NCBI RefSeq assembly: GCF_003334405.1
Contig: NZ_QOWM01000003.1
Reading direction: 5' to 3' (one strand)
DNA: 64,000 nucleotides
Origin: Escherichia coli
GTDB taxonomy: Bacteria; Pseudomonadota; Gammaproteobacteria; Enterobacterales; Enterobacteriaceae
Every line of letters starts with the position of its first letter. Position 1 is the stretch's first letter. The position numbers and the translations under genes are program-made. This document shows positions 23,578-24,031 of this stretch, piece by piece. The notes beneath the pieces are model-generated. The model did no database searches and was not told where the DNA came from. It saw nothing but the letters and a program-made list of their open reading frames with translations.

Positions 23578-23583
23578 CCATTC

Positions 23584-23610
23584 AGGATGAGGCGGTAAGC
23601 TTCATCCTGA
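23584..23610 (+). terminator. hairpin downstream of fumD (possible terminator)
   Basis: Stem caggatga/tcatcctg 7 bp after the fumD stop; U-tract is weak. Confidence 0.4.
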
Positions 23611-23817
23611 TATTCTTGCTTCAGTTGCGGTCCAGTTAATCATTCTAAATAACAACTGCTGAAATTATACGAATTTCGGTATGTATTTTAATTTATAGCG
23701 ATAATGTTATTTTTATTTTCTGCAATGAAAGTCACAAATAATTGTCGCTTAAGTTAAATTTATTTCAAATGATAATAAATATCAGTTCACTTATAATTTC
23801 TTGCTTTGTAATTTTAA

Positions 23818-23831
23818 TTGATAACGATCAA
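23818..23831 (+). promoter_or_regulatory. FNR box upstream of ydhY
   Basis: ttgataacgatcaa is a perfect TTGAT-N4-ATCAA match inside an AT-rich region about 200 bp upstream of the ydhY start. Confidence 0.7.
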
Positions 23832-24031
23832 TGTTAAGGGCTCAGAATAATCACATTATTTTTTCTCCTAACCATAAAGGATTAGTTTATCGGCGTTAAT
23901 CTTTTCTCATACACTATCGGGTTAGGGAAAATATCTGGTGTTGGGGACAGAGTCAGCAGCGTATTAGTTGAATGCTTAATATCAGGCTGCTGAATTGTCA
24001 GCACTGTGTTTGCGAAGAGGATGCGAAATAA

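Follow-up and report, generated by a model that had tools for sequence, protein, structure and literature searches.

Why is the DNA ahead of the ydhYVWXUT operon of Escherichia coli so rich in A and T, and which of the proteins H-NS, FNR and Fur act on it? The question was addressed in a 64,000-nt stretch of DNA (the window), which is E. coli K-12-type core chromosome in the orientation opposite to that of MG1655. The spacer between fumD and ydhY occupies 454 bp at positions 23578–24031, is 100% identical to that of K-12, and is found in 5424 of 5426 complete E. coli genomes with identities of 90–100%. The product of ydhYVWXUT is an iron-sulfur-rich anaerobic oxidoreductase system. In the sequence NC_000913.3, the start codon of ydhY is at position 1754477 and that of pykF at 1755698. 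The papers use the older U00096.2 numbering, which we take to be that of NC_000913.3 minus 1976. The FNR site TTGATCGTTATCAA bears out this offset, because its position of 1752702 (PMC3688515, Table S6) falls exactly on 23831–23818 of the window. The AT tract is best explained as an upstream control region of the ydhYVWXUT promoter, coated by H-NS and receiving inputs from FNR, Fur and NarL, and we hold this explanation to be probable. The features of the region are listed in Table 1.

Table 1. Genes and control elements in and around the fumD–ydhY spacer, in window coordinates. Positions relative to the transcription start are based on the inferred start at 23867.
Feature	Position	Strand	Description
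pykF, then ynhH		-	genes before fumD
fumD	23368–23577	+	gene 5' of the spacer
fumD intrinsic terminator hairpin	23582–23610	+	terminator scan and inverted repeat; 12-bp stem, 5-nt loop, then T-rich tail
Distal AT tract	23611–23760	.	composition kept, sequence not; together with the promoter module it is the published promoter island
Candidate CRP-like pattern TGnnA-N6-TCACA, TGCAATGAAAGTCACA	23721–23736	.	centre ~-138.5
Fur-like box ATGATAATAAATATCA	23769–23784	.	motif scan; centre ~-91
FNR box TTGATaacgATCAA	23818–23831	.	perfect consensus TTGAT-N4-ATCAA; centre -42.5
-10 hexamer CATTAT	23854–23859	+	read from the sequence; position follows from the published -42.5
Inferred ydhYVWXUT transcription start	23867	+	FNR centre 23824.5 plus 42.5
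ydhY 5' UTR	23867–24031	+	165 nt, 41–42% GC
NarL/NarP-type 7-2-7 site TAACCATAAAGGATTA	23869–23884	.	putative; heptamers TAACCAT-AA-AGGATTA; +3 to +18; 12/14 to consensus
ydhY	24032–24658	+	gene 3' of the spacer
ydhV	from 24679	+	next after ydhY

The GC content of positions 23580–24031 is 32.7%, compared to 50.2% for the whole window. The lowest GC content in the entire 64 kb lies in the spacer: the minimum for stretches of 200 bp is 22.0%, at 23636, and that for stretches of 300 bp is 26.0%, whereas the next 300-bp trough has 32.3%. These minima bear out the preliminary description, in which the segment was called markedly AT-rich and unlike the flanking coding DNA. However, the AT-rich part is narrower than the span of 23580–24031 given there. 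The core extends approximately from 23611 to 23885 with 26% GC (26.3% for 23611–23880 and 23.7% for 23640–23850), whereas the first 35 bp of the spacer, which form the terminator hairpin of fumD, have 49% GC, and the last ~145 bp, which belong to the ydhY 5' UTR, have 41–42%. The promoter module contains 25% GC and the distal tract 28%. TpA steps occur in the core at a frequency of 11.6 per 100 bp, which is within the top 0.1% of 275-bp windows (the mean of the whole window is 4.6), and runs of six A or T are eight times more frequent than the window average. Both of the A/T runs quoted in the preliminary description were located, at 23703–23723 and 23749–23780, and the second of them holds the Fur-like box.

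The terminator hairpin of fumD is positioned outside the AT tract and is present at the same place in all ten aligned species, with differing stem sequences. In the promoter module, the -10 hexamer belongs to the conserved block GAATAAnCACATTATTT, and inspection of the sequence upstream of CATTAT revealed no recognizable -35 hexamer. The anaerobic sigma70 ChIP-seq peak at MG1655 position 1752666 maps to 23867, which is the inferred transcription start. The start and the NarL-type site were assigned from the sequence and from papers that cite the original work. The Fur-like box was identified by a motif scan, in which 14 of the 19 positions of the 19-mer 23765–23783 match the Fur consensus. The pattern farther upstream is similar to a CRP site in which one half matches well, and its TG and TCACA are invariant or nearly so in ten Escherichia and Citrobacter sequences in which the surrounding DNA has diverged. 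Judged from these letters, it may be a CRP site; the available portions of the genome-wide promoter surveys that treat ydhZ and CRP contain no mention of one at 23721–23736. Motif scans of the tract for the IHF core, the SlyA consensus (with up to three mismatches), and the Fis pattern gave no match, and the best matches to the high-affinity motif of H-NS reach only 8/10. The spacer contains five promoter-like hexamer pairs, which is not an excess over the 4.8 ± 2.3 pairs in dinucleotide-preserving shuffles.

An 18-nt direct repeat with 89% identity links positions 23685–23702 to 23811–23828, the latter comprising the left-hand portion of the region around the FNR box. The two copies are offset by 126 bp, approximately 12 helical turns, and the block TATAgCGA within the repeat is conserved across species. 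The upstream copy may represent a second, degenerate site of the FNR type or what is left of a duplication.

In some E. coli strains, mobile elements have inserted into the AT tract. An IS1 element in strain FDAARGOS_1077 is flanked by a 10-bp duplication at 23738–23747, between the CRP-like pattern and the Fur-like box. Another IS1 is inserted at ~23625 in strain PSS-16, in which ydhY and the 5' end of ydhV are lost. Strain W444 carries a 109-bp miniature element with the IS5-type inverted ends GGAAGGTGCGAATAAGT and the target CTAA at 23645–23648, that is, an IS5-type MITE.

The leader of ydhY differs in length among the loci compared. Its last 40 nt, including the Shine-Dalgarno sequence at 24016–24021, are invariant, and the motif GGTTAGG at 23920–23926 is conserved. 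In inverted orientation, GGTTAGG repeats the CCTAACC of the transcription start (23867–23873), which is conserved as well. The motif may be a further NarL-type heptamer at ~+55; pairing of the two motifs in the RNA has no covariation support in the alignment. A structured leader or riboswitch in the ydhY 5' UTR was rejected, because its folding z-score of -1.15 is not significant and the alignment fold contains no covarying pair.

The tract is occupied by H-NS. The preliminary description proposed it as a target of this silencer, and the published ChIP data show that the proposal was correct, yet it had already been published. The part of the spacer that starts at MG1655 position 1752593 and is 318 bp long, corresponding to 23623–23940 of the window, appears among the promoter islands to which H-NS binds in the data sets of Grainger, Kahramanoglou, and Oshima (PMC3661553, Table 1), and the same three H-NS sources are given for ydhYV-T in another study (PMC5797941, Table 2). 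The extended H-NS regions determined by ChIP-chip are 1750103–1754293 aerobically (4,190 bp) and 1750995–1753982 anaerobically (2,987 bp), and both cover the promoter (PMC3688515, Table S3). In window coordinates the regions span 22240–26430 and 22551–25538, respectively. Table S6 of the same paper gives "None" for enrichment of nucleoid-associated proteins at the ydhY FNR site, which is at odds with its Table S3. Together, the published data show that H-NS with StpA occupies a domain of 3–4 kb centred on the tract and limits access to it. As to a xenogeneic origin, the coding DNA of the operon has a genome-like GC content; the spacer is covered by an island predicted by GIST (PMC5797941, PMC3661553).

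A second AT-rich spacer, between the divergent fumD and pykF (23028–23367), is located within the same extended H-NS region and holds the small annotated gene ynhH. Its GC content of 33% over 300 bp is the third-lowest trough of the window. It is marked HNS in a genomic SELEX table, as the ydhZ/pykF spacer.

The FNR box, which was said in the preliminary description to adjoin the AT tract, has a perfect consensus and coincides with a site reported from both ChIP-seq and ChIP-chip peaks (PMC3688515, Table S6). The centre of the site is at -42.5, and ydhYVWXUT was placed in category 1, directly activated (Myers et al. 2013, PMC3688515). Binding of FNR to ydhY in vivo was also detected in another study (PMC2690998). 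The sigma70 signal at ydhY is 46.9 aerobically and 177.4 anaerobically, and the aerobic to anaerobic expression ratio is 0.25, corresponding to approximately four-fold higher expression without oxygen (PMC3688515). The promoter thus combines a perfect box near -42.5 and a sigma70 peak at the implied start with FNR occupancy and FNR-dependent expression known from the literature, as is characteristic of class II FNR-activated promoters. In a Δhns ΔstpA strain, the average FNR ChIP-chip peak at ydhY increases from 0.295 to 1.822, which is approximately six-fold on the reported scale (PMC3688515), indicating that H-NS restrains FNR.

Published data show that Fur is present at the promoter region and that expression depends on it by a route that does not involve RyhB. 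In strain CFT073, the expression of ydhY relative to the wild type is 0.072 in the fur mutant, 1 in the ryhB mutant, and 0.109 in the double mutant, and a Fur ChIP-seq peak is present. The peak position, 1910890, is 9 bp upstream of the Fur-like box. Deletion of fur changes the expression of ydhY by log2 factors of -7.26 in W3110, -4.68 in strain 042, and -2.88 in BL21, whereas KO11 displays a slight increase of +1.08 (PMC10164565). In strain 042, the Fur ChIP-exo interval covers +35 to +47, ~125 bp downstream of the Fur-like box; the sufA intervals of that table lie on either side of the true Fur box, no more than 15 bp away from it. The ydhY promoter shares with ftnA an upstream Fur box occupied by Fur and positive RyhB-independent control. 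At ftnA, Fe-Fur reverses silencing by H-NS, and the same idea was put forward for appY, according to the available part of PMC4676285, in which this work is cited. The Fur ChIP signal, together with the marked drop in expression that Δfur strains show independently of RyhB, suggests, by analogy to ftnA, that Fe-Fur is a likelier antagonist of H-NS at ydhY than FNR.

Additional regulators act on the promoter. Repression of ydhYVWXUT by NarL and NarP in response to nitrate and nitrite is described in published work, and judging from its sequence, the 7-2-7 site just downstream of the transcription start probably mediates it. Overproduction of SlyA increases the expression of ydhYV-T 2.5-fold under aerobic conditions (PMC5797941), and overproduced SlyA is a better candidate for an H-NS antagonist than FNR. 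In vitro, the ydhY promoter is better transcribed by the sigma-S holoenzyme. The expression of ydhY was 19-fold rpoS-dependent in one stationary-phase medium, and the gene is on the list of the Crl regulon. The ydhY promoter of W3110 is expected to match the same K-12 sequence. Under the same conditions, however, the ydhY mRNA level is 100–113 in W3110 and 0.2–0.6 in MG1655, an approximately 200-fold difference, and the operon is almost silent in MG1655 (PMC10164565). It is possible that this gap reflects a trans-acting difference, such as that in the crl or rpoS allele.

The control region was compared among 30 loci from Escherichia, Citrobacter, Leminorella, and Limnobaculum, based on a scan of one genome per species. 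Under the narrow search patterns used, orthologues of ydhY-ydhV were found only in these four genera, and fumD is upstream of ydhY only in Escherichia and Citrobacter. All 29 loci with upstream sequence have, 141–241 bp before the start codon, an FNR box that fits the consensus or departs from it at one position. The start of the Fur-like box, which is invariant across Escherichia and Citrobacter and recognizable in Leminorella and Limnobaculum, precedes the FNR box by exactly 49 bp in 24 Escherichia and Citrobacter loci and by 51 bp in three Budviciaceae loci. The NarL-type site starts 51–52 bp after the start of the FNR box in 23 loci. The Fur-like box, FNR box, -10 hexamer, and NarL-type site therefore form a rigid conserved module. 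Citrobacter sp. NCU1 has on its second contig another copy of ydhY-ydhV, which is more diverged (88% and 86% identity) and lacks fumD upstream. This copy has an FNR box, and its Fur-like box is weaker.

The AT-rich composition is also retained. A 200-bp stretch with 14–29% GC is located within 700 bp upstream of the ATG in all loci except one, for which only 264 bp of upstream sequence are available, and in nearly all loci it is positioned upstream of the FNR box or overlaps it. In an alignment of ten species, the distal tract has 24–34% GC although its identity to E. coli is only 28–62%, and therefore the composition is kept where the sequence drifts. In Budviciaceae, the 635-bp upstream spacer has 23–27% GC, and its flanks have 47–56%. 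YdhV is 86–99% identical between species. In three Budviciaceae loci, the identities to the E. coli proteins are ~90% for YdhV and ~87% for YdhY, and the promoter module is retained even though the neighbouring genes differ. This combination of high protein identity, retained module, and unlike neighbours points to joint movement of the operon and its control region.

The preliminary description envisaged anaerobic counter-silencing by FNR. In its pure form, the main function of FNR would be to displace or remodel H-NS under anoxia at a core promoter that is competent on its own. Both proteins are present on the region, the loss of H-NS and StpA raises FNR occupancy, the H-NS region is shorter anaerobically, and the cloned promoter supports some in vitro transcription with RNA polymerase alone and more with sigma-S. 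However, the anaerobic H-NS region still covers the promoter, and a box centred at -42.5 has the class II geometry of direct contact with RNA polymerase. Because of this position, the missing -35 hexamer, and the spacing between the FNR box and the -10 hexamer, which is fixed in all species, we infer that FNR is chiefly a direct class II activator and not a mere remover of H-NS. The documented direction is the reverse, with H-NS limiting FNR. Counter-silencing by FNR is not the most straightforward interpretation, and its pure form appears improbable. Fur, in turn, could be a conventional upstream activator that bends DNA, contacts the alpha C-terminal domain, or assists FNR, independently of H-NS. 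The exact 49-bp offset argues for a stereospecific relation of Fur with FNR or RNA polymerase rather than generic competition with a filament, and the positive RyhB-independent control in several strains is as expected for such an activator. Nevertheless, the box sits inside the documented H-NS domain, and reversal of H-NS at ftnA is the sole mechanism of Fe-Fur induction in E. coli cited in the available part of PMC4676285. A conventional role of Fur independent of H-NS is thus somewhat doubtful.

The AT-richness itself could be a passive by-product of overlapping AT-rich operators, intergenic mutational bias, or foreign origin, and the binding of H-NS would then be incidental. The consensus sequences of Fur, FNR, and NarL are themselves AT-rich, as is the promoter module that contains the sites, and promoter-like sites are not more frequent than in composition-matched shuffles. 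Furthermore, the near-silence of the operon in MG1655 could have causes unrelated to H-NS. Such a by-product would hardly explain why the distal 150 bp remain AT-rich in ten species despite the low identity to E. coli, why the same is true of Budviciaceae with other neighbours and flanks of much higher GC content, or why the FNR signal changes about six-fold upon removal of hns and stpA; we regard a passive origin as unlikely. The probability that the tract hides a gene, small RNA, or small protein of its own is very low. Promoter-like hexamer pairs do occur on both strands, and the region has been called a promoter island. Nevertheless, the Rfam scan of 22800–24300 gave no match at E ≤ 1, the leader lacks a fold signal and covariation, and the open reading frames in the spacer encode only 21–40 amino acids and run across blocks whose reading frame is not conserved. 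None of the small open reading frames of at least 20 amino acids in the spacer is credible.

The preferred explanation of the tract as an H-NS-coated control region can be put as a sequence of steps. H-NS and StpA coat the tract and restrain the access of FNR. From its position at -91 within the H-NS domain, Fe-Fur might relieve H-NS as it does at ftnA, and FNR bound at -42.5 under anoxia would activate RNA polymerase directly as a class II activator. Nitrate and nitrite repress through NarL and NarP. FNR, Fur, NarL/NarP, and sigma-S with Crl converge on one promoter, and if Fe-Fur relieves H-NS and FNR activates, then expression would require both iron and anoxia. The operon would fire only when iron is available, oxygen is absent, and there is no nitrate, which is sensible for an Fe-S-rich complex. 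A tentative extension of this scheme, for which ftnA serves as the model, is a conserved gate requiring iron and anoxia, in which the Fur and FNR boxes 49 bp apart would allow Fe-Fur to open the H-NS filament and FNR subsequently to recruit RNA polymerase. If the gate exists, ydhY would be a second, naturally modular case of anti-silencing by Fur, and its Fe-S-rich enzyme would be under an iron-sparing switch in which RyhB is bypassed. The hypothesis that relief of H-NS by Fur opens the way for FNR bears on gene activation by Fe-Fur, of which there are few worked examples. The combined requirement for iron, anoxia, and lack of nitrate would also narrow the conditions in which the enzymatic function of YdhYVWXUT should be sought.

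The feature is already known, ordinary, and largely explained. The new elements are the conserved register of the Fur and FNR boxes, the AT composition kept across genera, and the hypothesis drawn from them. The locus shows that a silencer-coated AT tract can coexist with precisely spaced activator and repressor sites, and has little importance beyond annotation. The primary characterization of the E. coli K-12 ydhYVWXUT promoter is reportedly that of Partridge et al. from 2008. The spacer is the same locus as that promoter, with no sequence difference (Partridge et al. 2008; Myers et al. 2013, PMC3688515). It is also one of the 78 listed promoter islands, and H-NS binds it in all the sets compared (Shavkunov et al. 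2013, PMC3661553). Most promoter islands flank cryptic or foreign genes, whereas this spacer has a working, multiply regulated promoter. The hexamer scan did not detect the excess of promoter-like sites that is characteristic of the islands; the authors of PMC3661553 used another predictor. Similarly to hlyE (clyA), which is relieved by SlyA, ydhY is preceded by AT-rich DNA bound by H-NS, and overproduction of SlyA increases the expression of hlyE 2.0-fold, comparable to the effect on ydhYV-T (PMC5797941). However, the ydhY tract is without the SlyA consensus, and the effect occurs only under overproduction and could be indirect. The likeness to ftnA consists of positive RyhB-independent control by Fur, an upstream Fur box, and DNA occupied by H-NS (Nandal et al. 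2010, cited in PMC4676285). In contrast to ftnA, ydhY has just one conserved Fur box, which keeps a fixed register to a class II FNR site.
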